Origin: an uncultured Verrucomicrobiota bacterium
GTDB taxonomy: Bacteria; Verrucomicrobiota; Kiritimatiellia; JAAZAB01
NCBI GenBank assembly: GCA_964475405.1
Contig: CAYYWX010000001.1
Span: forward strand, 6,333-70,332
Length of the DNA stretch: 64,000 nucleotides
Direction: 5' to 3'
Part shown: one piece after another, positions 18,841 through 43,190 of the stretch
Layout of the letters: the number at the start of each line of letters is the position of its first letter
Position numbering within the stretch: position 1 is the first letter of the stretch
Notes under the pieces: model-generated
Database searches by the model: none
Told to the model about the DNA's origin: nothing
What the model saw: only the letters and a program-made list of their open reading frames with translations
Position numbers and translations under genes: made by a program

Positions 18841-20472
18841 TTATTTTCCCGGGCCGCCGATGCAATACAGATACCTCTGCGCCCGGTAGAAGATATTGTT
18901 GCCGTCAAAGAACGGGGTGCTCACCGTCCCCTCAAGCGTATTGTTCCCATAGTAGTAATTGATGCGCTGGTCGATGGTATTGCGTCCGACTTCCTTGTAT
19001 TCCCGGCCCGGCTCAAGGATCAAGGTCGTCCCGAAGTTGCCGACCAGGAATATTTTCCCCCCGGCCAGGGCCGGCGAGGCGGCCATCCCGCAGCCATAGG
19101 GCCGGTCATTGCGCAACGGCTCATTGCCGAAGTCGAGATTTTTGCTGTAAACGACCTTTTCCGTCAGGACATCGCAGACGAATAACAACATTTGGGGACC
19201 CAGCGCCGGTTTACCTTTGCTAGGCATGATCGGATTGTTGCCGCAGACATAAAGCAACCCGTCGTGATAAAGCACCGAGGGCACCACGTGGCGTCCGCCG
19301 TCGGGCGGGACCAAGGCTGTTCCCTTGATTACCGGCTTGAACGGCGCGTCGGCCTTTTCGGGCAATTGATAATAACGCACCGGGCTGCCGTTGTTCGCTG
19401 TGCTGACGCCGCCCATGCCCTCCATCCAGAAAACAAATCCGCCGCCGAACACCGGCGATCCCTTGCCGGTATGTATGAGGGCGCCCTTGGAAAAACAGAC
19501 ACCGTCCGAGGCGCGGATCAGGCTGCCGTCGCCGGCGGCGAACACCTTTTCACCCCCAATGACCGAGCTGACATGGGAGGCAAACCACCAGGCACCGCCC
19601 TTGAGGTCCGTTCTCCAGGCGTCCTTGCCGGTTTTCTTGTCAAAGGCCAGGTATTGCCGGCCGACATAAGTGATCACCAGGTCGCCGACCAGCAGGGGTG
19701 AACCGTAATGGCCGTGTTCCTGCGGCACAAGCTTGTCATAACGGATCCATTGGCGGTTGCCGTCAAGGTCAAAGCAGGCCGTCACGCCCCAGCCGTTCCA
19801 GGCAAAAACAAATTTTCCGTCGGAGACCGGGGTGGCGGCCATGAATCCGCCCTCACCCCCTATTCCGCTCTTATAGTTCTTGTCCAAGTTGCCGGCGGCG
19901 ACGAGGAGTTTGATCACCTCGCCATTCATCACCCCGTCAATCTTGGATATTTCCCCGCCCAATTGGAAAACTCCATTCGTTCCGGGATCGGTTATTTTCG
20001 CAAGGAGCGCATCGCGCTGTTGCGCCTGCTGGTCCAGCTTGTCAAAGACCTCCTTGTTCGCTTCGCGTTCTTCCTTCGTCGCGGCGTCATAGGGACTGAC
20101 CGGCTTGACCCACAGGATTTTACCCGTGAGTTTATCCGCGCAGATCAATTCATAGTTGTTGCCGGTGGCAAAGAGTTTGTCGCCGACCGCGATCACGGAG
20201 CTGGGAGAGTCAAATGGCATAATGGTCCGCCAGGCGATATTAGTCCCCTTGCCGTCCTTCAGGCTCCAGTTCATGGGCGGGGTGGCGCCGGAAAATTTTC
20301 CCGTGCCGTCCCCGCGCCAGCCGACCGGCTGTTCGGGCGACGGGCGGAAGTCCGGCGAACCCAGCAGCGCGTCCTTGGCCGCGACCGTTGTTGAAACGCC
20401 GAAGATTAAAACCGCGAAAGCCAGGCCGGCGGCCTGGATCGTTCTTCTCGTCTTGTTCGGGTCAATTTTCAT
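18841..20472 (-). CDS. Secreted PQQ-like beta-propeller repeat protein, paralog 1 (BamB/PQQ-repeat superfamily)
   Basis: GGGAGA RBS. Signal peptide, then the family N-motif LGSPDFRPSPEQPVGWRGDGTGKFSGATPPMNW. PQQ-like repeats (A.DK.TGKILW). Its C-terminal ~65 aa are near-identical to paralog 2. Confidence 0.8.
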   Translation of the reverse strand: MKIDPNKTRRTIQAAGLAFAVLIFGVSTTVAAKDALLGSPDFRPSPEQPVGWRGDGTGKFSGATPPMNWSLKDGKGTNIAWRTIMPFDSPSSVIAVGDKLFATGNNYELICADKLTGKILWVKPVSPYDAATKEEREANKEVFDKLDQQAQQRDALLAKITDPGTNGVFQLGGEISKIDGVMNGEVIKLLVAAGNLDKNYKSGIGGEGGFMAATPVSDGKFVFAWNGWGVTACFDLDGNRQWIRYDKLVPQEHGHYGSPLLVGDLVITYVGRQYLAFDKKTGKDAWRTDLKGGAWWFASHVSSVIGGEKVFAAGDGSLIRASDGVCFSKGALIHTGKGSPVFGGGFVFWMEGMGGVSTANNGSPVRYYQLPEKADAPFKPVIKGTALVPPDGGRHVVPSVLYHDGLLYVCGNNPIMPSKGKPALGPQMLLFVCDVLTEKVVYSKNLDFGNEPLRNDRPYGCGMAASPALAGGKIFLVGNFGTTLILEPGREYKEVGRNTIDQRINYYYGNNTLEGTVSTPFFDGNNIFYRAQRYLYCIGGPGK

Positions 20473-22743: not shown

Positions 22744-24413
22744 TTTTCGCTGGTCCCTTCCGGCTCGCCAATGCAGTAAAGATGCCTCTGCGCCCGGTAG
22801 AAAATCTTGTTGCCGTCAAAAAACAGGTTACCTACCGTCCCCTCCATCCTGTCTTCCTTATAGTAGTAACTGATGCGCTGGTCGATGGTATTGCGTCCGA
22901 CTTCCTTGTATTCCCGGCCCGGCTCAAGGATCAAGGTCGTCCCGAAGTTGCCGACCAGGAATATTTTCCCTCCGGCAATGGCCGGCGAGGCGGCCATCCC
23001 GCAGCCATAGGGCCGGTCATTGCGCAAGGGCTCATTGCCGAAGTCGAGATTTTTGCTGTAAACGACCTTTTCCGTCAAGACATCGCAGACGAACAATATC
23101 ATGTTCTCTTCCACTCCCCGCTTGCCGCCGCCGCGGGTGATGGTCGTACTGTTGCCGCAGACATAAATCAAACCGTCGTGATAAAGCGGCGAAGGCACCA
23201 CGTGGCGCGCGGTTTCGGGCACTTCCAGGGCCGCGCCCTTGATGGCCGGCTTGAACGGCGCGTCGGCTTTTTCGGGCAGTTTATAGTAACGCAACGGACT
23301 GGTTAATGACCCATATCCATCCAGCCAGCAGACATACCCGCCACCGGCCACGGGCGATCCCACGCTGGGATGCCAGCAGGCGCCCTTGGCAAAACGGCCG
23401 CCGTCGGCAATGGTCATCAGGCTGCCGTCGCCGCCCACCATCACTTTTTTACCATCAATGACTGTGCCGACCGGCGAGGCAAACCACCAGCCGCCCTCGC
23501 CCGGACCCGCCTTATGATCCGTTCTCCAGATTTCCTTGCCGGTTTTCTTGTCCAGCGCCAGGTATTGCCGGCCGACATAAATGATCACCAGGTCCCCGGA
23601 AAGAAGGGGCGAGCTGTAATGGCCGTGCTCCTGCCAGGCGAGCTTGTCAAAGCGGATCCACTTGCGGTTGCCTTCAAGGTCAAAGCAGGCCGTAACGCCC
23701 CACCCGTTCCAGGCGTAGACCAAAGCGCCGTCCGAAGCCGGCGTGGTGCCCATGAACCCGCCTTCGCCCGATATCCCGGGGCCCTTGTATTTTACCTTGT
23801 CGGACGCGGCAAGGAGTTTCATCATCTCGCTGTCGTTCTTGGTTATTTCACCGCCCAGCTTGAAAATTTCGTTGGAGACCGCCGCGGCGGCGACGGCCGG
23901 CATCTTCGCGAGGAGCTCATCGCGCTTTTGCGCCATTTTATCCAGGTTGTCAAAGAGCTCCTTGTTGGCCTCCCGGTCTTCCTTCGTCGCAGCGTCATAG
24001 GGGCTGACCGGCTTGACCCACAGGATTTTGCCCGTGCGCTTCTCCACGCAAATTAGCTCGAAGTCGTTGCCGGTGGTGAAGAGTTTGTCGCCGACCGCGA
24101 TCACGGAGCTGGGAGAGTCAAGGGGCATCCGGACCTGCCAGGCGATATTGGTCCCCTTGCCGTCCTTCAGGCTCCAGGTCATGGGCGGCGTGGCGCCGGG
24201 AAAATGCCCCGTGCCGTCCCCGCGCCAGCCGACCGGCTGTTCCGGCGAAGGGCGGAAGTCCTTTGAACCCAGCGGCGCGTCCTTGGCCGCGGCCGAAGTT
24301 GAAATGCCGCACATTAAGACCGCGAAGGCCAGGCCGGCTGCCGGGATTATCGTCCTCGCAAAATTCAGGTCAATCTTCATTATCTGTTTTCCTTTCAGGG
24401 AACTCATGGTCAC
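22740..24413 (-). CDS. Secreted PQQ-like beta-propeller repeat protein, paralog 2
   Basis: Signal peptide plus N-motif LGSKDFRPSPEQPVGWRGDGTGHFPGATPPMTW. PQQ repeats (CVEKRTGKILWVKPVS). The 3'-terminal ~200 nt are essentially identical to paralog 1. Confidence 0.8.
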   Translation of the reverse strand: MTMSSLKGKQIMKIDLNFARTIIPAAGLAFAVLMCGISTSAAAKDAPLGSKDFRPSPEQPVGWRGDGTGHFPGATPPMTWSLKDGKGTNIAWQVRMPLDSPSSVIAVGDKLFTTGNDFELICVEKRTGKILWVKPVSPYDAATKEDREANKELFDNLDKMAQKRDELLAKMPAVAAAAVSNEIFKLGGEITKNDSEMMKLLAASDKVKYKGPGISGEGGFMGTTPASDGALVYAWNGWGVTACFDLEGNRKWIRFDKLAWQEHGHYSSPLLSGDLVIIYVGRQYLALDKKTGKEIWRTDHKAGPGEGGWWFASPVGTVIDGKKVMVGGDGSLMTIADGGRFAKGACWHPSVGSPVAGGGYVCWLDGYGSLTSPLRYYKLPEKADAPFKPAIKGAALEVPETARHVVPSPLYHDGLIYVCGNSTTITRGGGKRGVEENMILFVCDVLTEKVVYSKNLDFGNEPLRNDRPYGCGMAASPAIAGGKIFLVGNFGTTLILEPGREYKEVGRNTIDQRISYYYKEDRMEGTVGNLFFDGNKIFYRAQRHLYCIGEPEGTSEK

Positions 24414-24445: not shown

Positions 24446-26623
24446 TTACTGTTTCTTCCCCTGTTCCTCAATGCAATACAAATTTTCCTCCCCGCGAAAG
24501 TACATGCGATTGCCGTCAAAGACAGGCGTGCTGGTCATGGTATTGTCCTGGTACTCGGGACAGTACTTCCTGTTGCACCAATATCCATAGTTGCCGAGCG
24601 CCCGGCCGCTTCTGGCAAGGTATTGAATCCGGTTGCGGGCGACTTCTTCATACGTGCGCCCCGGCTTGATGACTATCGTCACGCCGGTCGCTCCCATCAG
24701 GTAGATGTGCCCGCCGGCAAGAGCCAGGCTCGCGCCGAAATAACTGCGTTGATGCGCGGCCGCAAAAAGATCAATCGGCAATTCCTTCTGATACACGCCT
24801 TCCATGGTCACCACGTCGAAAACCTTCAACACTCCATCGCCGCTCACGGTATACCCCAGGCCATCATAAATTAACGGGGACGTCACAAGACTTTTGCCCT
24901 GGTAGAAGTTCAATCCCAACGGCAACTGCTCCGGCAATTTCACGCTTTGCCCTGGTTGTTTGATCGCCAGGCCGTTGTTGGTGGTTGCCTCGACCGTATA
25001 TTTAAGGACACCATCCGGAGAGTTTTGCCATGCCGCATCCCCCTCAAAGATCGGCGTGGAAACCCAGTTGCCCCAGCCTTGCGAGCCGAAGACCTGTCCA
25101 TCCCGGGCGCGCACGAGAATATTGCCGCCGGGACACAGGACGTATTCAGTATCTTTGAACACCGCCCGGCTGAGCGAACCGCCCCAATTCCGCCAGCCCT
25201 TGGTTTTACTCGCGTTTTCAAGACCCACGCTCCACTTCGCCGAGCCGTCGGAGAGGTCAAAGGCCGTGATGGTGCCGTCCATAATGACAAACTTCCTGTC
25301 GGCAATGACCGGCGCGCTGTAGTAGCCATGATGCTGGTACTTCGGCCTTTCGTAGCGTATCCAGCGGCGTTTGCCGTCCAGGCCGTAACAGGCTCTTGTT
25401 CCCCGTGTCAGCCATACAAAAACGCCGCTGCCTTCGGAGGCCGGCGTCGGAATCGTCCACCAGTCCGGCTCGCCCTGCTCGTCGGGCCGCTTGTACTTCA
25501 CGCGGTCCACCTCAAGCATAATTTTGTCCAGCTCGTTTTCAAGCTTAGATTCTTCTTTCACCGCGGCCTCGTCGGGCTGTTTTCCAAGCAAATAGTCTTG
25601 ATAGAAAAGCTCGCGCTTGGCCGCCAGCGGATCCAGCTTGGCGAAAACTTCCGGCTTGGCCTTGCGTTCCTCGGGCGTGGCGGCATCGTAGGGACTGTTC
25701 TGCCGGATCCAAACGATCTTGCCCGTCTTCTTGTCAACGCAGACCAGGTTGTAGGGATGGGCCATGGTGAACAGGAAATCGCCCGCGATGATCGGGTTGG
25801 CCTGGGTCAGCCCCGGCATTCGAACTATCCAGGAAATATTCGTGGAAGCATAGTCGCGCGGTTCTTCCGACGGCCAGAACCGGCAGCGCACAAAACACGT
25901 TTTCGGAAAATCAAAATTGCCCATGCCCATACGGGGCGTCAACTTGAACAGGAAACGGTTCCAGCCCGCCTGAAGCTGCAATTCCAGGGTGGGCCCCATG
26001 TCGCCGCCTCCGTTATTGACGGGGGTGTCGGGATTGGTGTATTCCCTCGCGCCGTTCAGCCACAACACCAATCCCCTGGCATGGTTCAGATGGAACCAGA
26101 TCTTGGCCGGCTTCTCAACATACAGGCACGCCTGCGCATACGCCGCCTGATCATTGGTCATAATTCCCAAGGGGCGAAAAAGGTCTATAAAGGAGTCTTC
26201 CACCTTGACCATCTGCCAAATTGCGTTGCCAAGTTTGTCGCCTTCCCGCGGTGCGAACGACGCTTCCCCGGGCATCACTTCCTGCGCGATCGCGTTGGTC
26301 AGACCGGCGCACGAAAACGGGCCGGCCACAAGCCACTCCGTGAAAAATCCCGTCGTGGCCGGGGTTGCGCCGGCGGATGAATTGTCCTTCGGCGCGGCGG
26401 CCGCGCATTTCAAGTCGCCAAGTTGCTTCAGGCTGCGCCCCCAATGCACGGGAGGATTGGCGCCAGGATATTTTCCCGTGCCGTCCCCGCGCCAGCCGAC
26501 CGGCTGCTCGGCGGATACTCGGAAATCGGGCGAACCCAGAACCGCATCTTTGGCCATGATTGTTGAGATGTTGAATGTTAAAAGTGCCAACGCCAAACTG
26601 GCCGTCATAATAATCTTTTTCAT
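24446..26623 (-). CDS. Secreted PQQ-like beta-propeller repeat protein, paralog 3, with inserted beta-sandwich (galactose-binding-like/CBM-like) module
   Basis: Probable true start at MKKIIMTASLALALL (track ORF extends to 26737). N-motif LGSPDFRVSAEQPVGWRGDGTGKYPGANPPVHW. A ~200-aa insert (FFTEWLVAGPFSC...WFHLNHARGLVLWLNGAREY) lies before the propeller repeats (VCVDKKTGKIVWIRQNS). Confidence 0.75.
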   Translation of the reverse strand: MKKIIMTASLALALLTFNISTIMAKDAVLGSPDFRVSAEQPVGWRGDGTGKYPGANPPVHWGRSLKQLGDLKCAAAAPKDNSSAGATPATTGFFTEWLVAGPFSCAGLTNAIAQEVMPGEASFAPREGDKLGNAIWQMVKVEDSFIDLFRPLGIMTNDQAAYAQACLYVEKPAKIWFHLNHARGLVLWLNGAREYTNPDTPVNNGGGDMGPTLELQLQAGWNRFLFKLTPRMGMGNFDFPKTCFVRCRFWPSEEPRDYASTNISWIVRMPGLTQANPIIAGDFLFTMAHPYNLVCVDKKTGKIVWIRQNSPYDAATPEERKAKPEVFAKLDPLAAKRELFYQDYLLGKQPDEAAVKEESKLENELDKIMLEVDRVKYKRPDEQGEPDWWTIPTPASEGSGVFVWLTRGTRACYGLDGKRRWIRYERPKYQHHGYYSAPVIADRKFVIMDGTITAFDLSDGSAKWSVGLENASKTKGWRNWGGSLSRAVFKDTEYVLCPGGNILVRARDGQVFGSQGWGNWVSTPIFEGDAAWQNSPDGVLKYTVEATTNNGLAIKQPGQSVKLPEQLPLGLNFYQGKSLVTSPLIYDGLGYTVSGDGVLKVFDVVTMEGVYQKELPIDLFAAAHQRSYFGASLALAGGHIYLMGATGVTIVIKPGRTYEEVARNRIQYLARSGRALGNYGYWCNRKYCPEYQDNTMTSTPVFDGNRMYFRGEENLYCIEEQGKKQ

Positions 26624-28359: not shown

Positions 28360-28925
28360 CCAACAATTTCTTTTGTTAGACTATATTATCAAAACAGTTA
28401 CAAATCAATCAACACACATGTTGCCTTTTTGTCATAGTATTGCTTATATTTGTCATTTAGATCGTTCCGTTAAAACCCTGGCCACGCATTTTACGTGGTA
28501 AACCTGTGACTTGCCAAGTTACCAAGTCGCGGGTAAGGCCAAAGGCATGGCTGGGCAGGCATGACACACTTTTGCGGAGAAGTTGGAACGTATGACAAAA
28601 AGAATTCTTGTCCCGCTCAATCCCGATATCAAATCGGGATTGGGCGGCAGACTCGCAGGGCGAATTTCGCTTCCGCCAGTGCGGATTGGGAAAAACAAGG
28701 CAAGACCGGTTTAGATGCCGGTGCGCCGCGTGAAGCATCAGACTCGATTCTATGCGAACGCGGCAAGCCGGCAGATAAGCCGGTATCGCCGACTTGTCCT
28801 CCGTAGTCCGCTGTAGCGAGACGAAGGAGGACGTATTTTCCCAACGAAATTCGCACTGCTATGAACAACGAACGGCGATAAATAAATTTGGTTGCGGCTA
28901 TATGCCGCCTTAAGGAGGAATCACA
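28360..28925. promoter_or_regulatory. Long AT-rich divergent control region between the beta-helix gene and the AraC gene, with direct tttgtcat repeats and several small hairpins
   Basis: Direct repeat tttgtcat-N23-tttgtcat around 28425-28465. Perfect hairpin caatcccgat-atcaa-atcgggattg at ~28618-28642. Strong RBS (taaggaggaatcacaATG) before the AraC gene. Confidence 0.4.
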
Positions 28926-29789
28926 ATGGCAGGCAGAGCGCTTGAACAGGACGACTGGCTCAGGCTCAACAGCCGGTTGCTGTGGATATATGACGAGGCT
29001 GTCCCTGAAACAGGCAGCAGGAAGTTCAGCTCGCCGAATTATTCGGCCTGGCTTGTCAGGCGCGGGCACGTGAAAGTTTCATGGCCCGGACATGAACCAA
29101 TCGTAATCGGCGGCGGGTCCTGGGTGATTCCTCCGCTCAACGTGGAAAGATCGCAGTTATTTTCGCGCGATGCGGCCATTCTTTCCATGTGCTTCCAGCT
29201 TGAATGGCCGAATTACAGCCCGCTTTTTCCGCTGAAAAAACTGGTTTCCTTCCGGTCGTCATCCGCGCCGGAACTTGAGAAACATGCGCTGGATCTTTTG
29301 AATGTTTCCGGCGGACGCCTGACGTTCCCCTGGTGGCGCGAGGACGGATTCATGGACTTCGGGAAACATTCCGCTTCGCAGGCAAAATTCTGGCAATGGC
29401 TCGCCCGCTGGTCCTCCGTCATGATCAAGAACGGCGTGGAGCCGTTTATTCCCGATAAAATGGACAGCCGGGTGGCGGGTGCCATCAAGATGATTGACGG
29501 CCTCTCCTTCACGGGTAAAATTCCTTACGGCAACCTGGAAAAAATCGCCGGGCTGGGAAAAGTTCAAATTGACCGGCTTTTCCTCAAAAACATCGGGATG
29601 ACGCCCCGCAAATATCTTGAAAGAAGGGTCTTGGAATCCGCCAGGGAACTGCTCCAGACAACCGGAATGTCGGTCAAGGAAATAGGCTTCAAGCTGGGCT
29701 TCGCCTCCGCCTCGCATTTCTGTTTTTGGTTCAGGAAGCGCGCCGGTATCTATCCGCTGGATTTCAAGCTCAAGGGATGGCCGTTTTAA
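28926..29789 (+). CDS. AraC/XylS-family transcriptional regulator
   Basis: C-terminal double HTH (LFLKNIGMTPRKYLERRVLESARELLQTTGMSVKEIGFKLGFASASHFCFWFRKRAGIYP) and an N-terminal ligand-binding-like domain. Divergently oriented to the hydrolase/PQQ gene array. Confidence 0.8.
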   Translation: MAGRALEQDDWLRLNSRLLWIYDEAVPETGSRKFSSPNYSAWLVRRGHVKVSWPGHEPIVIGGGSWVIPPLNVERSQLFSRDAAILSMCFQLEWPNYSPLFPLKKLVSFRSSSAPELEKHALDLLNVSGGRLTFPWWREDGFMDFGKHSASQAKFWQWLARWSSVMIKNGVEPFIPDKMDSRVAGAIKMIDGLSFTGKIPYGNLEKIAGLGKVQIDRLFLKNIGMTPRKYLERRVLESARELLQTTGMSVKEIGFKLGFASASHFCFWFRKRAGIYPLDFKLKGWPF

Positions 29790-29910: not shown

Positions 29911-32133
29911 CTACCGCTCTTCAATGCAGTACAGGTTTTCCTGTCCGCGGTAATACATGCGTTTCCCCTCGAAAACCGGCGCGCTGGCGATGGTGGATTC
30001 CTGCTGCTCGACAATGTAAGGCAATTTATAGGAGGTGTTGCCGTAGATGTTGATACAATAAGAGCCGAGCGCCCTGCCGCCTTTCACCATCCTGGTGTCC
30101 TGCGATTCATCTCCCCTGACGATATGTTCCACCTTGTTGCGCGCGACCTCCTCATACTGCCGGCCGGTCTTGAAGACGATCGTGATGCCGGTGGGGCTCA
30201 TGACATAGATGTAAGGGCCGGCCAGGGTCGGGCTTCCACCCCACCAATTGCACCACGGATTACGGGAGAAACTGTTGATGTCGCCGGCCAGTTCCTTCTG
30301 GTAGACCGCGGCCATCTGCTCGATGTCAAACACGGTCAGCACGCCGTCGTCGCTGACCTGGTAACCAAGTCCTTCGTGTATAACCTGGGAGCCGCAAACG
30401 CTCCTGAACATGTCCTGGTATCCCGGGGGCTTGATCGGCTTTTCGGCCAGGGGCTTCATTGTGCCGCGCGAGACGGCTGAAACTCCGGAACTGCCGGCCT
30501 TGATGTCGAAGACCCGGGACCCGGACATGACGCGGTCCTTGTCTATCACCGGGGTTATCATGAATCCGCCGGAAAATTTATTGGAGTTCACCTGCCCGTC
30601 CGTGCCCCGGATGAAAACATTCCCGCCGCCCCCGCACAGGTAATCGGTCGAATTGAACCGGTAGTTGACGAACGACCCGAACTGACCCGGGCCGCGAAAA
30701 TAGCCGATCGCGCTTCCGGCGATCTGCCAGGCCTGGAGACCGTCGGCCTGGTTGAAGGCCGTCATGTTGCCGTCATAGATCACCATTTTTCCGTCGGCTA
30801 TGTTCGGCGAGTTGAACCAGTTGTGGTGCTGGGGGAGCGGAGTGCTGTAGCGGGTCCAGCGTCGTTTGCCCGCCATGTCAAAGCAGGCGCGCACGCCGAA
30901 AGTGTTCCAGACATAAATGTTTTGGCCGTCCGAGACCGGCGTCGCCACGGACCATTGTTCCCCGTCCGTGGGTTCCTGGAGTTTCTTGTATGTTTCGTTC
31001 CACGTCTCCAGGATTAATTTGTCCATCTCCTTTTCCAGGGCCATCTGTTCCTTGACCGCCTGCTCGCCCGGCTGGGTGCCTTCCACGTAACTGCGGTAAT
31101 AAGCATCGCGTTTCTCAGCCATGCCGTCCAGCTTGGCGGCCGCCTCTGGATTTTCCTTGCGCTCCTCCGGCGTGAGGGCGTCGTAAATGCTGTTTGGACG
31201 CACCCAGAGGACTTTTCCCGTTTTCTTCTCCACGCAGACCAGGCTGCAAGGATAGGCCGTGGTGAAAATTTTGTCGCCGACAATGATCGGCATTGACAGG
31301 CTGATTCCGGGCATCGTCGTTATCCAGGCGATATTTTTCTCCTGGTATTCATGCGGCTCCCCGGCGCTCCAAAAACGGCAGCGCAGGTAGCATTGCGGCT
31401 TCCAGCCTTCCGCCTTGGTCTCCGAAATTTTGAACAGGAAACGGTTCCAGCCGGCCTTCAACTCCAGGGGGATCACCGGGCCATGGGCAAAATGCCACCA
31501 GGATTGCATGTCCTTGTTGGCGTACATCTGTTTGCCGTTAAACCAGAAGGCCGCGCCCTGGACGTGTTTCAGGTGCGCATAAACCTTGACCGGATTCTCA
31601 ACGTAGAGGCACGATTGCGCGTAGGCCAGCTGGTTACTGGTCATCGGGCCGACCGCTTTCCATAAGTCCACGTATGAGTCGTCAACCTTGACAAGCTTCC
31701 AGGTTGTGTCGCCGATTTTATCCCCCGCCACCGGCGCGAAATCAGCCTCCCCCGGCAGCAATTGGCCGGTGATCGCCTTCACGGCGTCCGTGTCGGAACA
31801 ACTGATCGGCCCGGCCACGAGCCACTCGCTGAAAAATCCGACCGAGACAGGCGTCGCGTCCTTGCCCGACTGGTCCTTCGGCACGGCGGCCAAGCACTTG
31901 ATCCCCAGCATTTTCTTGTCAACCCGTCCCCAATGCACGGGCGGATTGGCGGCCGGGTATTTTCCAGTGCCGTCCATACGCCAGCCGACCGGCTGTTCCG
32001 GGGAAGGACGGAAATCAGGCGATCCGAGCGGCGCCTGTCCCGCGACAGCGCCGCGAACGCCGCAGGTTAGAAAAATGAGCGCCAGGACGGGTGCCGGGAT
32101 CATTGTCTTCATGAGGTTGGAATTGATTTTCAT
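29911..32133 (-). CDS. Secreted PQQ-like beta-propeller repeat protein, paralog 4, with inserted beta-sandwich module
   Basis: Signal peptide. N-motif LGSPDFRPSPEQPVGWRMDGTGKYPAANPPVHW. Insert homologous to that of paralog 3 (FFSEWLVAGPISC...YAHLKHVQGAAFWFNGKQMY). PQQ repeats (VCVEKKTGKVLWVRPNS). Confidence 0.75.
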   Translation of the reverse strand: MKINSNLMKTMIPAPVLALIFLTCGVRGAVAGQAPLGSPDFRPSPEQPVGWRMDGTGKYPAANPPVHWGRVDKKMLGIKCLAAVPKDQSGKDATPVSVGFFSEWLVAGPISCSDTDAVKAITGQLLPGEADFAPVAGDKIGDTTWKLVKVDDSYVDLWKAVGPMTSNQLAYAQSCLYVENPVKVYAHLKHVQGAAFWFNGKQMYANKDMQSWWHFAHGPVIPLELKAGWNRFLFKISETKAEGWKPQCYLRCRFWSAGEPHEYQEKNIAWITTMPGISLSMPIIVGDKIFTTAYPCSLVCVEKKTGKVLWVRPNSIYDALTPEERKENPEAAAKLDGMAEKRDAYYRSYVEGTQPGEQAVKEQMALEKEMDKLILETWNETYKKLQEPTDGEQWSVATPVSDGQNIYVWNTFGVRACFDMAGKRRWTRYSTPLPQHHNWFNSPNIADGKMVIYDGNMTAFNQADGLQAWQIAGSAIGYFRGPGQFGSFVNYRFNSTDYLCGGGGNVFIRGTDGQVNSNKFSGGFMITPVIDKDRVMSGSRVFDIKAGSSGVSAVSRGTMKPLAEKPIKPPGYQDMFRSVCGSQVIHEGLGYQVSDDGVLTVFDIEQMAAVYQKELAGDINSFSRNPWCNWWGGSPTLAGPYIYVMSPTGITIVFKTGRQYEEVARNKVEHIVRGDESQDTRMVKGGRALGSYCINIYGNTSYKLPYIVEQQESTIASAPVFEGKRMYYRGQENLYCIEER

Positions 32134-32395: not shown

Positions 32396-34495
32396 ATGAT
32401 CATTTGGAACATGACCAAAACAATGACTTTGGCAACCGGCCTGGCGTTTGTTCTCCTAATCCACGCTGTCCGAGGTGTTGCGGCAGGAGAGGCGCAATTG
32501 GGTTCCCCGGATTTCCGCCCTTCGCCGGACCGACCGATCGGCTGGCGCGGGGATGGTTCCGGGAAATATCCGGCGGCCGAGCCGCCGCTTCACTGGGGAC
32601 GCGTGGCGAAATCGGTGAAGGAATTATGCGCCCAGTCCGCCAAGCCAAAGGAGGGCGACAAGGGGAAACCGATACCCGACGGCGTCATCCGCGAATGGAT
32701 GGTTCTGGGACCGCTGCCGGCGCCGGAGGGCAGGAATTTCACGAATGAACTCATCAGCGGGGAAGCCGATCTCAATCCGGCCGAGAACGACAAAATCGGG
32801 GAAAACGCCTGGAAAAAGGTTTTGCTGGAAACATCCTGCCTTGACCTTGCGACCTTGTTTGACCTTGCCGGTAAAACAAACCCGGTCGTCGCCTACGCCT
32901 GCGCGAACTTATGCTCCCCCGGCGGCCAGCCGCTCATCCTGAATTACATGCACGGGGGGATGACTCAAATCTGGCTCAACGGCAAAATGATCTACAACTG
33001 GAACCCCGCCGCCAATTCCACCGTGCGCTTGCAGCTCAACCCGGTAAAAGGCTGGAACCGGCTGGTCATCAAGATCAGCGCCAAGGGCTACATGCGCCCG
33101 GTGATCTTCGGCGCCCTTCCCGGCGAGTACGAGAGCAAGAATATCGCCTGGACCGCCGTCTTTCCGGCCGCGGGCCACAGTTCGCCGCTGATTGTCGGGG
33201 ACAAGATTTTTGCCATCGCCGAGGGCGGCCGCCTGTGCTGCCTGAACAAGGCGGACGGCAGGATCCTCTGGGTCCGTTCCAGCACTTACTTTGACGCGGC
33301 GACGGAGGAGGAGAAGAAGGCCAACCCGGACCTTTTCAAGGAACTGGAACCGCTCGCGGCAAAACTCAGGGAACTGGATGACGCCTGGGTGGCATCGCCG
33401 CTGCCGGATACGCTGAAAGAGCGCGGGAATATAGAGACCCTACTCTACAAGGGCGTTGTCAAAGTGAACAAGGAAAAATACCGCATGGCCGACGGCAGCG
33501 AGGCCGGCTACAGCGCCCCCTCCCCGGTCAGCGACGGACAGCGCGTCTACGCGGCTTTCGGCTCAGGCCTGGTTGTCTGCTATGATTTTGAAGGCAACCG
33601 CAAGTGGCTCACGCTCGAAAGCCACCCGACCGTGGAACACGGTTACACCTCTTCACCGCTGCTGGTGGACGGCAAATTGATCGTCTATTTCGGCAACCTG
33701 CGCGCGCTGGACGCGAAGACCGGCGCGGTGGCCTGGCAGCGGCCGCGCTACCTGCTCACGGGCGACAGCCTGACATATTGCGTGTTTCGCGGGACCGGTT
33801 GCGTGCTGCCGGCCGGCAATGACAAGGTGGCCTATTTCCTGAACGGCGATTTCGCGCGGGTGAGCGACGGCAAGATGCTCTGTGCGGACTTCTGGAAATT
33901 CGGCGACAACCGGATCGCAAGTCCTGTTGTCGATCGCGGTGTGATATATAAAATCGCCTCCAATAGTGGCGGCGTCACGGCCATCAAGCTTCCGGAACCG
34001 GCCGGGGATAAAATACTGCCGGAGATTGTCAAAAAGATTGCCTTCGACACCGGGAAGTTTCCCGTCAAGTTCTTTAATACCTACTACAATGCCTCGCCCT
34101 TGCTCAATGAAGGCCTTATGTACTGCGTGGACCAGGACGGCGTCCTAACGGTCGTGGATGTGGAAAAAGGAGAAGTGCTCTACCAGAAGACGCTTGATCT
34201 GGACCTGTACATGCACCACAACTTCGGTCCCGGCCGGGGCGGCGCCTCGTCCAGCCCGACGCTCGCCGGCAAGTATATCTACATCTTCGGCAACCAGGGA
34301 ACCTGCCTTGTCATCGAGTCGGGCCGCACGTACAAGCAGGTCGCGAAGAACCGTGTGGAATTCATTTACGGCGCGCGGGAATGGTGGGCGCGCCAGGAAA
34401 TCACGATGTCGTGCCCGGTCTTTGAGGGCCGGCGGATGTACTTCAGGGCGGACGCGAACCTGTACTGCATTGAAGAAAAAGGAACTGACAAATGA
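32396..34495 (+). CDS. Secreted PQQ-like beta-propeller repeat protein, paralog 5 (plus strand), with inserted beta-sandwich module
   Basis: AGGGGGA RBS. Signal peptide. N-motif LGSPDFRPSPDRPIGWRGDGSGKYPAAEPPLHW. Insert (IREWMVLGPLPAPEG...IWLNGKMIYNW). PQQ repeats (CCLNKADGRILWVRSST). The stop overlaps the next gene's start (ATGA). Confidence 0.75.
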   Translation: MIIWNMTKTMTLATGLAFVLLIHAVRGVAAGEAQLGSPDFRPSPDRPIGWRGDGSGKYPAAEPPLHWGRVAKSVKELCAQSAKPKEGDKGKPIPDGVIREWMVLGPLPAPEGRNFTNELISGEADLNPAENDKIGENAWKKVLLETSCLDLATLFDLAGKTNPVVAYACANLCSPGGQPLILNYMHGGMTQIWLNGKMIYNWNPAANSTVRLQLNPVKGWNRLVIKISAKGYMRPVIFGALPGEYESKNIAWTAVFPAAGHSSPLIVGDKIFAIAEGGRLCCLNKADGRILWVRSSTYFDAATEEEKKANPDLFKELEPLAAKLRELDDAWVASPLPDTLKERGNIETLLYKGVVKVNKEKYRMADGSEAGYSAPSPVSDGQRVYAAFGSGLVVCYDFEGNRKWLTLESHPTVEHGYTSSPLLVDGKLIVYFGNLRALDAKTGAVAWQRPRYLLTGDSLTYCVFRGTGCVLPAGNDKVAYFLNGDFARVSDGKMLCADFWKFGDNRIASPVVDRGVIYKIASNSGGVTAIKLPEPAGDKILPEIVKKIAFDTGKFPVKFFNTYYNASPLLNEGLMYCVDQDGVLTVVDVEKGEVLYQKTLDLDLYMHHNFGPGRGGASSSPTLAGKYIYIFGNQGTCLVIESGRTYKQVAKNRVEFIYGAREWWARQEITMSCPVFEGRRMYFRADANLYCIEEKGTDK

Positions 34496-36567: not shown

Positions 36568-36830
36568 TGTAAAACCGTGTTCGTAATAGGTGTAAATTCT
36601 TTGATCCATCCCAACAATCACCCACCCCGCCCGTCCCGGCTCCGTCCGCCGACGGCGCGACTCCGCCGAGGCGAGCACCCCTCCCAAGGAGGGGAACCGA
36701 AGAAGTTCGGGAACAAGAGTTTCGATCCCCTCCTGCGGAGGGGTGCCCAACTGGCGGGGTGGGTCGGATTTTGACAGTAATTTTTGTTCGACATCAGAAA
36801 AATTGTCTTACACTGCCTTTGTGATAGCAA

Positions 36831-36888
36831 CTTTATCCATCCTTGACTTTCAATCCGGCGATAATCTAAGATTTCCTGAAAAATTTAC
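36831..36888 (+). repeat. Direct repeat copy A (~58 nt) upstream of the tauE-like gene; candidate shared promoter/operator
   Basis: ttatccatccTTGACTttcaatccggcgataatctaagatttcctgaaaaattta. Contains a TTGACT -35-like hexamer. A near-identical copy lies at ~37813-37872. Confidence 0.5.
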
Positions 36889-37801: not shown

Positions 37802-37812
37802 GTCTGTTGGGC

Positions 37813-37872
37813 GATTTTATCCATACTTGACTTTCAATCCGGCGATATTTTAAGATTTCTCAAAAATTAAAC
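37813..37872 (+). repeat. Direct repeat copy B (~58 nt) immediately upstream of the GH127-like gene
   Basis: ttatccatacTTGACTttcaatccggcgatattttaagatttctcaaaaattaaa, about 90% identical to copy A in the same orientation. Confidence 0.5.
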
Positions 37873-39872: not shown

Positions 39873-40133
39873 ATGAATAAATCAGCCGTCATCCACGCCA
39901 GAATAGAGCCCGAAACCAAGAACGCGGCCGAGCGCGTCCTGCTCAAACTCGGATTAAGCCCCACAAATGCCATCCGCATTTTCTATCGCCAAATATCGTT
40001 GAGGCAGGGACTGCCTTTTTCGGTGGAAATGCCGAACGAATTGACGCGCGCCACTCTCAAAAAGAGCCGGAACGGAAAAGACATCGAGCGCTATGACACC
40101 CTGGATGATATGTTCGCGAGCTGGAAGAAATGA
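39873..40133 (+). CDS. dinJ: Type II antitoxin, RelB/DinJ family
   Basis: Ribbon-helix-helix N-terminus (AVIHARIEPETKNAAERVLLKLGLSPTNAIRIFYRQI). ATGA overlap with the downstream YafQ-like toxin gene. Confidence 0.8.
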   Translation: MNKSAVIHARIEPETKNAAERVLLKLGLSPTNAIRIFYRQISLRQGLPFSVEMPNELTRATLKKSRNGKDIERYDTLDDMFASWKK

Positions 40134-40399
40134 AACAACTCTTCCAGACAACGCAATTCTCCAAGGATGTCAAACGGATGCAGAAGCGGAACAAAGACCT
40201 GGAGAAACTTGAAATCATTGTCCGGAAACTGGCTAACGATGAACCCCTTGATCCGCGCCACAGGGACCATCCTCTTTCCGGTGAATGGAAGCCCTGCCGG
40301 GATTGCCATGTTGAACCGGACTGGATATTGATTTACACAAAGACAGACGAATACCTCCGGCTGGAGCGCACCGGCACGCATAGCGATCTTTTTGAATGA
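40130..40399 (+). CDS. yafQ: Type II toxin, YafQ/RelE family mRNA interferase
   Basis: QTTQFSKDVKRMQKRNKDLEKL...DPRHRDHPLSGEWKPCRDCHVEPDWILIY matches the YafQ family signature, including the catalytic His/Asp-rich C-terminus. Confidence 0.8.
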   Translation: MKQLFQTTQFSKDVKRMQKRNKDLEKLEIIVRKLANDEPLDPRHRDHPLSGEWKPCRDCHVEPDWILIYTKTDEYLRLERTGTHSDLFE

Positions 40400-40544: not shown

Positions 40545-40874
40545 ATGCCCTGGCTTTATCTTTCTATCGCCATTGTCTCGGAAGTCATTGCCACCTCCGC
40601 CCTCAAGGCGACCGACGGATTCACGCGCTGGTTCCCGTCGCTGCTGGTCGTCGCCGGATACTCATCGTCCTTCTTTTTCCTTTCACTGACCTTGCGCACC
40701 ATCCCGCTCGGCGTGAGCTACGCCATCTGGTGCGGCCTGGGAGTAATACTCGTCTCCGTCGCCGGCTGGATTATTTACCATCAGGCGCTGGACAGAGCGG
40801 CCCTGGCGGGGATTGCGCTCATCATCGCCGGCGTGGCCGTCATAAATCTTTTTTCAAAGACCGCCGCGCATTAA
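40545..40874 (+). CDS. SMR-family small multidrug efflux protein (EmrE/QacE-like)
   Basis: 110 aa, 4 TM. Conserved membrane-embedded Glu in TM1 (AIVSEVIATSALK). GGGGAG RBS before the ATG at 40545. Confidence 0.8.
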   Translation: MPWLYLSIAIVSEVIATSALKATDGFTRWFPSLLVVAGYSSSFFFLSLTLRTIPLGVSYAIWCGLGVILVSVAGWIIYHQALDRAALAGIALIIAGVAVINLFSKTAAH

Positions 40875-40949
40875 GCGACCTTTGGACCGGCCGTCGCCGG
40901 TTGATTGCTCGTGAAATGATTTGACGGCAAAATGGCGGCAAACTCTAAC

Positions 40950-41180
40950 CCGCATTTCTCACACCTTGTGCGAGAAATGCGCCTAAAAGGCTTCGACGCG
41001 CCCCGAAACCGGGGCTTGCTCAGGGTTTGCCTTTCGTCGCGTCGAAGGGCCTGTCCTGAGCAAAGTCGAAGGGTTATCTTGAGCAATCCGCCAGTGGCGG
41101 AGGCCGAAACTTTTGCCGCAAAGGATTGCGGCAAAAGCGCATGTCTCGCAGGCGGTTTTCGCCCGTGAGATATGCGGGCT
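40950..41180 (+). repeat. Multi-hairpin structured repeat cluster A (upstream of the GH99/WbsX-like gene)
   Basis: Consecutive inverted repeats: gcatttctcaca..tgtgcgagaaatgc; cttcgacgcg..cgcgtcgaag; ccccgaaaccgggg; cttgctcagg..cctgagcaag; tccgccagtggcgga; ttttgccgcaaaggattgcggcaaaa. Ends with gagatatgcgggctaaaag. Modules are shared with cluster B. Confidence 0.5.
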
Positions 41181-41208
41181 AAAAGATCAAAAAAAGGAGA
41201 TCAACGAC

Positions 41209-42252
41209 ATGATAGGAGCGTATTATTTTGAAGGATGGGCGGGGCGCAACAAATTTGCCGATGATCCGGAACAGCCATGGGCGCGGAACGCGCCGACCCA
41301 CCTGACCCGGCGCATGATCAGTGAATTCCCGGAGCGGGAGCCAATCTGGGGCTGGCGGGACGATTCCCTGGCAATCATGGAACGGCAGATTGACCTCGCG
41401 GCGGACAACGGACTCGCCTTCTTCGCTTTCTGCTGGTACTGGCGCGATGACGGCCGGGCGATCAACAAAAAGGCGATCAAGGACGATCCGCTGCATACCT
41501 GCCTGGAGTTGTACCTGAAGGCCAGGAACAACCACCGCCTGAAATTCTGCCTGCTGGTGGCCAATCACCGGGGGGCCGAGATCAAGGGGACGGAAAACTG
41601 GAAGCAGGCCGCCGAGTTCTGGATGCCGTATCTGAAGCACCCGCAATATGTGACCGTAGGCAAAAAGCCGCTGGTCATTGTCTTCAGTCACGTGGGCGGA
41701 GACGCAGAAGGCTTCGCCTGCATGCAGAAAGCGGTAAAAAAAGCAGGGTTGACGGAAGGCCTGGCGATCGCCGGCTGCGGTGGCGGAGACCAGAAAACCC
41801 TGGAATCGGGCTACACGCACCGGACGCATTACAATGTCATTTCCGGATACGAGGCTAAATCCGAGCCGCACAAATTCGCGGAGCTCGCGGCATCCAACCG
41901 GGAAGCGTGGGGCGGCAGCCGCGAACAGCCGTATATGCCGATCGTGACGGCCGGATGGGATAAACGGCCGTGGGAAGGGCCGACCGGACTTAAGCAGGCG
42001 GAAAATTATTATTACCCGGACCGCACGCCGGAGCAATTCGCAAGTTATTTGCGCGACGCGCTCAAGTGGATGGACGAACACCCCGACCAAACCACCGCCG
42101 AACGGATTGTCCTGATCTATGCCTGGAACGAGTTCGGCGAAGGCGGTTATATCGCGCCAACCAAGGGCGACCAGGACGGCAAGTATTTGAAGGCGCTCCG
42201 CTCGGTTGCGATACCGGGAGTTCCGGCGGCTGAAAACAAACCACGCCGCTAA
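41209..42252 (+). CDS. Glycoside hydrolase/glycosyl-transferase-like TIM-barrel protein of the GH99/WbsX-like group
   Basis: AAGGAG RBS. No signal peptide. C-terminal motif IYAWNEFGEGGYIAPT resembles the (A)WNEW.EG motif of GH99/WbsX-like families. Assignment is tentative. Confidence 0.5.
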   Translation: MIGAYYFEGWAGRNKFADDPEQPWARNAPTHLTRRMISEFPEREPIWGWRDDSLAIMERQIDLAADNGLAFFAFCWYWRDDGRAINKKAIKDDPLHTCLELYLKARNNHRLKFCLLVANHRGAEIKGTENWKQAAEFWMPYLKHPQYVTVGKKPLVIVFSHVGGDAEGFACMQKAVKKAGLTEGLAIAGCGGGDQKTLESGYTHRTHYNVISGYEAKSEPHKFAELAASNREAWGGSREQPYMPIVTAGWDKRPWEGPTGLKQAENYYYPDRTPEQFASYLRDALKWMDEHPDQTTAERIVLIYAWNEFGEGGYIAPTKGDQDGKYLKALRSVAIPGVPAAENKPRR

Positions 42253-42478
42253 CCCGGATTTCTCACAGGGAAAATCCGCCGGCGAGAAATCCGCTTGTGC
42301 CGCAAAAGATTGCGGCACAAGTTTCGACGCGGTGCTGTCGCACCTTGCTCAAGGTTGCCCCGCGTCATGCCGAAAGGTGAACCCTGAGCAAGCCCTGTTT
42401 TCAGGGCACGCCGAAGCCCTTGGGGCGCATTTCTCACACGCCGGGTGTGAGAAATGCGGGCTAAAGGGTGACATTCGT
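42253..42478 (+). repeat. Multi-hairpin structured repeat cluster B (downstream of the GH99/WbsX-like gene, upstream of the RHH antitoxin)
   Basis: Inverted repeats: ggatttctc..gagaaatcc; cttgtgccgcaaaagattgcggcacaag (12-bp arms); cttgctcaaggtt..aaccctgagcaag; ccctgttttcaggg; gcatttctcacacgccgggtgtgagaaatgc (13-bp arms). Ends with gagaaatgcgggctaaaggg. Confidence 0.5.
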
Positions 42479-42528
42479 TTTCAGATGGATGATTGACAAT
42501 CCGCCGGTAATGTTATACATTGTATTAC

Positions 42529-42750
42529 ATGAAAACGGCAACACTCAGCATTCGTTTGGACAAGGATTTGGATCGTCTCCTGGACAAGGCCAGCAGCCTG
42601 GCCGGCAGGAGCCGGAGCGAAGTGGCCCGCGACGCGCTGCGGCGTCAACTCCGTCTTACCCAATTTGAGGCCATCCGCCGCCGCATGATGCCCTTTGCCG
42701 AGGCGCGGGGATTCCTTACCGACGAGGATGTTTTCGCCCAGGTGTCATGA
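42529..42750 (+). CDS. Ribbon-helix-helix (CopG/VapB-like) antitoxin
   Basis: MKTATLSIRLDKDLDRLLDKASSLAGRSRSEVARDALRRQL is a canonical RHH. ATGA overlap with the downstream PIN gene. Confidence 0.7.
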   Translation: MKTATLSIRLDKDLDRLLDKASSLAGRSRSEVARDALRRQLRLTQFEAIRRRMMPFAEARGFLTDEDVFAQVS

Positions 42751-43190
42751 GGGTGTTCCTGGACACGAACGTGATCGCCAGCGCCATCGCGACTCGCGGG
42801 TTATGCGCGGACGTGTTTCGCACGGCCGTTGAATTCCACGAGCTGGTGGTTTCGGAACATCTCCTGGCCGAACTCCGGCGGATTTTGAAAGACAAATTCG
42901 GATCATCACCGGACCTCATTGACGACGTCACCCGGCTTCTTCGCCAGGACACTTTCATGGCAAAATCGCAACCGCCCGCCAATGTGTCGCTGAAGGACAC
43001 CGCCGACATTGCCATCGTCACCTCGGCCATCAATGGAGACGCGGAACTGCTCGTCACGGGCGACAAGGAGATACTGGCATTGAAACGCGTGGGCCCGCTC
43101 AACATCATCACCCCGCGCCAATTCTGGGAAAGAGAAAGAGGCCGGGAACGGGATACAGACTATCGCCCGGCTGCGACGGATGAATATTGA
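42747..43190 (+). CDS. PIN-domain toxin (VapC-like ribonuclease)
   Basis: MRVFLDTNVIASA provides the first acidic residue of the PIN motif, with further conserved acidic positions (ADIAIVTSA...ELLVTGD). Confidence 0.7.
   Translation: MRVFLDTNVIASAIATRGLCADVFRTAVEFHELVVSEHLLAELRRILKDKFGSSPDLIDDVTRLLRQDTFMAKSQPPANVSLKDTADIAIVTSAINGDAELLVTGDKEILALKRVGPLNIITPRQFWERERGRERDTDYRPAATDEY

Follow-up and report, generated by a model that had tools for sequence, protein, structure and literature searches.

What are the two hairpin-dense spacers on either side of a glycosidase-like gene in an uncultured groundwater bacterium, and in what way are they related to each other? The gene in question encodes a GH99-like protein of the WbsX family and lies between an SMR gene and a toxin-antitoxin gene pair, in a stretch of 64,000 nt (hereafter the window) from contig CAYYWX010000001.1 of GenBank assembly GCA_964475405.1, which is assigned to a Verrucomicrobiota bacterium of the Kiritimatiellia. 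The first-pass annotation of this DNA, made from the letters alone, had proposed that the spacers are a family of cis-regulatory RNAs, an array of repetitive extragenic palindromic (REP) sequences similar to a bacterial interspersed mosaic element (BIME), or the direct-repeat ends of a mobilised gene cassette. The analysis described here indicates that each spacer holds a single miniature inverted-repeat transposable element (MITE) that goes back to insertion sequences (ISs) of the IS1380 family, and that the two copies, termed A and B, represent two independent old insertions, a reading to which a probability of about 90% can be assigned. The spacers are thus remnants of mobile DNA of a common sort, and no novel regulatory RNA is involved. 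The earlier annotation was right in thinking of something repeated or mobile, but none of its three specific options fits.

Boundaries, Ends and Orientation of the Two Elements

Element A comprises 230 nt (40949–41178, plus strand) with the left end CCCGCATTTCTCACA and the right end CGTGAGATATGCGGG, and element B comprises 208 nt (42253–42460, minus strand, i.e., reversed relative to A) with the ends CCCGGATTTCTCACA and TGTGAGAAATGCGGG. The terminal inverted repeat of both copies is CCCG(C/G)AT(T/A)TCTCAC, and its two arms match at 13 of 15 positions in A and at 14 of 15 in B. As read from the sequence, each element is enclosed by its own pair of 4-bp target-site duplications, CTAA. For A these are located at 40945–40948 and, in identical form, at 41179–41182, the latter 26 nt before the ATG of the WbsX gene; for B they are located at 42249–42252, where the TAA of the duplication is the WbsX stop codon, and at 42461–42464. 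The boundaries drawn in the first-pass annotation were right to within a few bases for A, and its end of B was 18 nt too long, lying at 42460 and not at 42478. The terminal motif that had been placed 25–35 nt before the next start codon is found at such a distance from the WbsX gene (ATG at 41209, 30 nt), not from the antitoxin gene (ATG at 42529, 68 nt).

When B was reverse-complemented, its local alignment with A ran from end to end (score 142, about 240 nt); compared directly, the two elements gave a local match of 43 nt only. Two long inverted matches between A and B were also reported by the repeat finder, one of 94 nt at 77% and one of 77 nt at 79%, and over 214 aligned positions the two elements are 75% identical. 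An nhmmer profile built from 11 copies of the family matched A on the plus strand with 197 bits and B on the minus strand with 205 bits, the plus-strand matches to B reaching only about 20 bits, and neither this profile nor the motif searches revealed a further copy in the window. Judged by their sequence, A and B are the same element, present twice and facing in opposite directions. It had been thought that the modules common to both spacers are shared in the same orientation. This does not hold, since the modules are palindromic and read alike on both strands, their order is reversed, and A aligns with B as the reverse complement. The modules themselves are real and exceed chance expectation: CCGCATTTCTCACA occurs 6 times against 0.46 expected, the TTGCCGCAA hairpin twice against 0.01 and CTTGCTCARGGTT three times against 0.16, and within the window all these motifs are confined to the two spacers. 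The open reading frames across A and B are only spurious frames through the palindromes. Beyond the window, A is 91% identical to a metagenome copy (L055).

Copies in Other Genomes and Their Target Duplications

Two patterns were applied in the search for copies elsewhere. The first scan, with the left-end hairpin as the pattern, covered one representative genome per species and gave 18 stretches in 15 genomes, where by estimate far fewer than one was expected. The hosts belong to the Alpha-, Beta- and Gammaproteobacteria, Desulfobulbia, Chlamydiae, Victivallales, Verrucomicrobiae, Phycisphaerae, Acidobacteria, Acanthopleuribacter and Balneolaceae, with one unclassified bacterium among them. 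Most of these matches are free-standing hairpins of about 45 nt, in which CCCGCATTTCTCACA, a loop and TGTGAGAAATGCGGG are enclosed between two YTAR tetranucleotides, and the flanks of some are clearly direct and non-palindromic (CTAA/CTAA, TTAG/TTAG). The mini-hairpins (L003–L020; e.g., L004, 3898–3940, and L012, 1544–1588) consist of two abutted IS1380-type ends with a loop of 3–11 nt, and they give the impression of being this IS group reduced to its minimum. In a metagenome-assembled genome (MAG) of the Victivallales four stretches match the left-end hairpin, and one of them is a full copy (L009). The second pattern, consisting of the left hairpin and GGCTTCG, was run over metagenomes of the Joint Genome Institute (JGI) and marked 23 contigs.

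The far end of the copies was located through similarity to the end repeat alone. In 13 of 13 full copies (119–234 nt, on metagenome and MAG contigs) the flanks turned out to be direct 4-bp repeats, namely CTAA, TTAG or TCAG, and in 0 of 13 was the right flank the reverse complement of the left one. Direct flank repeats are predicted by target duplication, whereas a palindrome that simply continued outwards would not produce them. Of 28 left flanks, 25 conform to YTAR, the commonest being TTAG (11/28) followed by CTAA (10/28); non-YTAR flanks such as TCAG or CTAC are occasional, and the flanks also match in shorter derivatives from which the right repeat is largely missing. Ten copies (A, B and eight from metagenomes) were also excised in silico, each together with one duplication. 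Across the excised sites of the eight metagenome copies there is no frame of more than 97 aa, and those of A and B are spanned only by extensions of the WbsX frame, which continue for 11 and 17 codons beyond the site. The absence of genuine spanning frames thus implies that the insertions were intergenic at all ten sites (10/10).

The Parent Insertion Sequences

The origin of the ends was revealed by BLAST of the end hairpin against annotated plasmids, in which the matches were single copies of the 15-mer, paired 1.65 kb apart. On plasmid pKF715A of Pseudomonas putida and on a Stutzerimonas megaplasmid they delimit a 1655-bp IS with CTAG/CTAG flanks, whose ends are the same 15–16 nt. A 1654-bp version with the same terminal repeats and likewise with CTAG duplications is present on a Bradyrhizobium plasmid; this copy is without an annotated transposase gene, and its transposase homology lies in two pieces. 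The ISs of pKF715A and Stutzerimonas encode an intact protein annotated as an IS1380-family transposase (WP_034018616.1 in the pKF715A element), and the Pseudomonas transposase matches NF033539 transpos_IS1380 with 406.8 bits (cutoff 180) and PF13701 with 511.7 bits. The group to which it belongs is large, with at least 8000 proteins at E<=1e-60 in environmental data. Two transposases, about 70% identical, sit in ISs of 1663–1665 bp that end with CCCGGATTTCTCACC or CCCGCTTTTCTCACG, one of them with CTAA/CTAA flanks, and these end variants cover the differences in the ends among the MITEs. According to published descriptions, members of the IS1380 family are about 1.67 kb long, with inverted repeats of 13–16 bp and direct repeats of 4–5 bp (PMC3281130).

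The elements described here combine a small size without coding capacity, ends that match those of an IS, a direct duplication as long as that of the parent IS, and dispersed copies with different flanks; MITEPye1 was assigned as a MITE on these same grounds (PMC11578231). On pKF715A a second IS1380-family IS adjoins the first (L021, 5775–7154). Its transposase is 28% identical, its ends start with CCCGG/CCCGC, and there is an apparent 5-bp duplication, TTAAA.

Hairpins, Folding and Compensatory Changes

Both spacers are dense in inverted repeats, as had been stated before, and the repeat finder reports perfect or near-perfect short ones throughout. Folded as a single strand, A reaches −76.8 kcal/mol (z = −9.9) and B −65.5 kcal/mol (z = −8.5), and for each of them 0 of 200 dinucleotide shuffles were as good. 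The architecture is such that at each end the outer repeat pairs with an inverted copy of itself further inside to form a hairpin, with three to four palindromes in between. In A, terminal hairpin 1 (40949–40981, plus strand) contains the outer inverted repeat and the inner inverted copy, and is the equivalent of the mini-hairpins of about 45 nt that occur in many phyla. Further inside lies a segment of 35 nt (41075–41109, plus strand), within a region that bears an insertion of about 24 nt missing in the closest relatives, and it is followed by a perfect 12-bp hairpin, CTTTTGCCGCAA-AGGA-TTGCGGCAAAAG (41110–41137, plus strand), which is the helix richest in compensatory changes. The density of hairpins is thus inherent in how the element is built.

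The consensus fold of 11 copies consists of 72 pairs, and 94.4% of the cells are paired. Changes on both sides were seen in 17 pairs and 42 cells, compared with 9.9 and 14.9 in column shuffles, and in a slid control, where the partners were shifted by 1–3 columns, 2–13 cells were changed on both sides. Half of the alignment was chosen by pattern. Moreover, the copies share descent, so that the shuffle control overstates the support. Compensation is clearest in the TTGCCGCAA hairpin and in the hairpin at the right end, where the outer repeat and the inner copy co-vary; in helix 11, that is the 12-bp internal hairpin, 5 of 12 pairs are changed on both sides. Helix 2 of the consensus, the left terminal hairpin, is invariant in the 11 copies, and most of its bases were demanded by the search patterns. 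On the aligned strand G-U pairs outnumber A-C pairs by 36:17, counts that are non-independent, dominated by one inherited pair and taken from a structure predicted on that same strand.

The first-pass annotation would have been refuted if there were no further copies and no covariation; copies were found elsewhere, the hairpins covary, and they are maintained across the copies of the family. In imperfect DNA palindromes, template switching between the arms can homogenise them, and compensatory-looking changes then arise without selection. Compensatory changes are expected of palindromic MITEs and are no demonstration of RNA function.

Strain Variants at the Locus

The arrangement seen in the window was recovered in other samples of the same groundwater project, where contigs L001 and L027 match it at 99.9% and 100%. 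In contig L002, from another sample, A and the WbsX gene are present together with 68 nt from the start of B, at 99.93% identity. On the left of A it has CTAG, not CTAA, and then unrelated DNA that includes another gene of the WbsX family (26% identical). The usual junction of B, CTAA and the antitoxin gene is found in L033, a contig of the sample that also yielded L002. Two contigs from one JGI sample, L025 (SMR side) and L064 (the other WbsX gene), both end at window position 41025 and differ in their left contexts, CTAA and CTAG, respectively, as would be seen if two left contexts led into one repeat; L002 links the CTAG context to A, the WbsX gene and B. The structural-variant breakpoint is located exactly at the outer end of A (L002, 1–2240, and L064, 1–2321, versus window position 40945). 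This outer end is a strain-level rearrangement breakpoint, flanked by CTAG…CTAA if the contigs come from one strain, and in that case the mismatched flanks indicate that copies of the element recombined, or that the assembly was joined through them, and not that a composite was freshly inserted.

The 35-nt segment of A (see above) is joined to unrelated contexts in the JGI contigs L026 (887–921) and L029 (2547–2581), the alternative flank being an esterase-like gene in L026 and a gene for a secreted protein of 1700 aa in L029. These joins could reflect a third locus, a strain variant or a chimeric assembly. A genomic island or an integration event was considered for them and rejected: the flanks encode ordinary-looking secreted and esterase-like proteins and do not overlap each other.

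Alternative Explanations

Since A and B face in opposite directions, share only 75% identity and have a CTAA pair each, two independent insertions constitute the simplest reading, and the extent of divergence indicates old, separate insertions rather than one cassette event; on the same grounds the spacers are not the direct-repeat ends of a cassette. An integron gene cassette with attC sites was also rejected, as the elements are inverted, no GTTRRRY cores are present at the boundaries, and the neighbours are SMR, toxin-antitoxin and glycosidase genes. One may ask whether A, the WbsX gene and B form a composite transposon (40949–42460), so that the gene was carried into the spacer between the SMR gene and the toxin-antitoxin pair by a transposase acting on the outermost ends. 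The outward ends, 40949–40963 and 42446–42460, are a perfect 15/15 inverted repeat, better than the own pair of either element; the outermost flanks are both CTAA, and A, the WbsX gene and part of B follow a different left context elsewhere, with the breakpoint exactly at the outer end of A. However, the inner flanks are CTAA too and each element has a complete duplication, which makes the outer pair uninformative, and CTAA is the second commonest target in any case. Moreover, the left flank of the variant is CTAG, yet the junction of B, CTAA and the antitoxin gene was found in that sample, which gives mismatched outer flanks. The test for a foreign cassette by composition detected no GC anomaly in the WbsX gene, whose GC content equals that of the neighbouring genes, and the divergence of A and B speaks against a common transposition as well. 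A composite origin is therefore very unlikely. It is also unlikely that the hairpin ends are functional as such, i.e., that MITEs and mini-hairpins are minimal substrates of a piggyBac-like bacterial transposase which sees folded or paired ends, and that the A/B pair could move the GH99-like gene as a composite; if it were so, the covariation of the right-end repeat would reflect a requirement for folded ends.

A role in RNA is independent of where the elements came from: they may now be structured cis-acting RNA, with REP/BIME-like stem-loops that stabilise or attenuate transcripts and hairpins that are kept by selection. The high proportion of paired cells, the changes on both sides in excess of shuffled and slid controls and the prevalence of G-U over A-C pairs would fit such a role, and both copies lie between co-directional genes with no predicted terminator-like site, so that they are probably transcribed. 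Yet A and B are opposite within one transcriptional direction and thus neither RNA strand is favoured. Rfam gave 0 matches at the gathering score in the whole window and 0 at E<=1 in 40850–42550, and the tRNA/tmRNA search found none. Template switching, the single inherited pair behind most of the G-U excess in a structure predicted on that strand, and the phylogenetic relatedness of the copies all lessen the weight of the covariation. A present-day RNA function is therefore possible but doubtful, and as an account of what the spacers are, a regulatory RNA is further contradicted by the transposon-type target duplications in every copy. The resemblance to REP/BIME-type repeats, maintained by a REP-associated tyrosine transposase (RAYT; IS200/IS605-like, Y1), lies in short GC-rich palindromes that are clustered intergenically and occur in both orientations. 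Against such an assignment stand the direct 4-bp target duplications in 13/13 copies, ends that are identical to the terminal inverted repeats of an IS1380-family IS with a DDE transposase and not part of a RAYT system, the presence of two copies only per 64 kb and the absence of a GTAG-type head tetranucleotide, and it can hardly be entertained.

The derivation from IS1380-family elements by independent insertion has to face some unfavourable observations of its own. In a tblastn search with the IS1380 transposase none was found in the 64-kb window nor on any MITE-bearing metagenome contig, and the autonomous ISs identified are from Proteobacteria or from unassigned metagenome contigs, not from the lineage of the window. 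Exact-protein look-ups with the WbsX, SMR and antitoxin proteins did not find the empty sites predicted for A (GGCGGCAAACTCTAAAAGATCAAAAAAAGG) and B (CACGCCGCTAAAGGGTGACATTCG): every contig with the neighbour genes carries the elements, and several of the contigs end inside A or B. The left-end hairpin was required by the search patterns, so that its conservation is partly by construction. Finally, compensatory change above that of the shuffles also fits selection on RNA or DNA structure, for which the plain view of a MITE has no need.

Proposed Mechanism and Its Meaning

In the proposed mechanism of MITE insertion, an IS1380-family DDE transposase encoded elsewhere would bind the 15-nt ends, mobilise the MITE in trans and duplicate the YTAR target; mobilisation in trans is suggested by the fact that the window and the MITE loci are without a transposase. 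Element A would have inserted at an intergenic CTAA shortly before the WbsX start codon, and B exactly at the WbsX stop codon, where the duplication would preserve the stop. In a read-through transcript from the SMR gene through the WbsX gene to the antitoxin gene, the elements may form stable stem-loops, with possible effects there, and the dispersed copies may provide homology that permits rearrangements.

With this explanation a candidate structured RNA family can be struck off, and the odd spacers are accounted for by a well-known mechanism. At the same time a MITE family built on IS1380-type ends is documented, for which no description was found in the literature searched for an IS1380-derived MITE or for the end sequence. 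Its clean 4-bp YTAR duplications recall the TTAA rule of piggyBac, and the abutted-end mini-hairpins might, speculatively, be of interest as minimal substrates of bacterial piggyBac-like transposases. For annotators it is of practical relevance that such repeats break metagenome assemblies, mark a strain rearrangement breakpoint, and can abut or supply stop codons.

Comparison with Known Systems

The MITEs share with the IS1380-family ISs (the pKF715A IS, IS1247, ISEcp1 and IS1380) the terminal repeat sequence CCCGCATTTCTCACA with ends starting CCC, as well as the 4-bp direct duplication at CTAG, CTAA or TTAG. They differ from these ISs in having no transposase gene, in their length (119–234 nt versus about 1.65 kb) and in their host, which is an uncultured groundwater bacterium and not a member of the Proteobacteria. 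The hairpin made of the outer repeat and the inner inverted copy is present only in the MITEs, as compared with the autonomous IS1380 ISs examined. Other bacterial MITEs, such as the Correia elements, MITEPye1 derived from IS1182, and the Tn3-derived inverted-repeat miniature elements (TIMEs), are likewise small and transposase-less, with inverted repeats that match an IS, target duplications, intergenic sites and predicted long stem-loop folds. In contrast to them, the elements described here have IS1380 as the parent family and contain several independent palindromes instead of one long stem.

The IS1380 and piggyBac superfamilies are close. Eukaryotic piggyBac transposons and MITEs likewise duplicate a 4-bp palindromic TTAA-like target and have CCC…GGG ends, whereas in the present family the target is relaxed to YTAR (with the rare exceptions given above), not strictly TTAA, and the host is bacterial. 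For piggyBac transposases, those of IS1380 have been used as the outgroup from prokaryotes (PMC10813416). REP/BIME arrays, too, are intergenic clusters of GC-rich palindromes that are able to enter transcripts; unlike the MITEs, REPs are without terminal inverted repeats of a DDE-type IS and without target duplications, and are linked to RAYT genes.

Genes Around the Elements

The earlier gene calls proved correct. The SMR gene (PF00893) ends at 40874, and the GH99-like/WbsX-family gene (41209–42252, plus strand; PF14307, 68.9 bits) encodes 347 aa and lies between A and B, outside either element. It is followed by a gene pair with RHH and PIN domains (42529–43190), in which the antitoxin ATG is at 42529. 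The homologs of the WbsX protein carry the name GH99-like; some are found in Planctomycetota, and the nearest is 80% identical. The domain search identified the neighbouring genes as SMR, toxin-antitoxin and glycosidase genes. The segment with the SMR and WbsX genes is bracketed by type II toxin-antitoxin pairs, i.e., RelB/YafQ at 39873–40399 and the RHH/PIN pair. In a promoter and terminator scan no terminator-like and no promoter-like site was found within A or B. The sole promoter-like site, TTGACA-17-TACATT (42493–42521, plus strand; a consensus match only), lies outside element B and would serve the RHH/PIN pair.

Other Repeats in the Window

Several repeats outside the MITE family were observed as well. 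A direct repeat of 56–61 nt, 86–88% identical, is located at 36827–36882 and 37811–37866, upstream of a TauE-family gene and a GH127 gene; it bears a promoter-like motif, TTGACT-17-TAAGAT, and may be a duplicated promoter region. A non-coding repeat of about 140 nt is shared at about 85% identity between the window (28790–28930) and contig L002 (1990–2175), where it has an extra palindrome of 51 nt, CACGCTTTTCCGC…GCGGAAAAGCGTG, so that the population may harbour another family of small insertions with palindromic sequence. Two paralogous genes, 18849–20390 and 22760–24298, lie 3.9 kb apart and are 73–91% identical in blocks. Finally, a segment of 125 nt recurs at five places, including 26441–26565, 31930–32054 and, inverted, 32477–32602, and looks like the shared N-terminal region of a multigene family.

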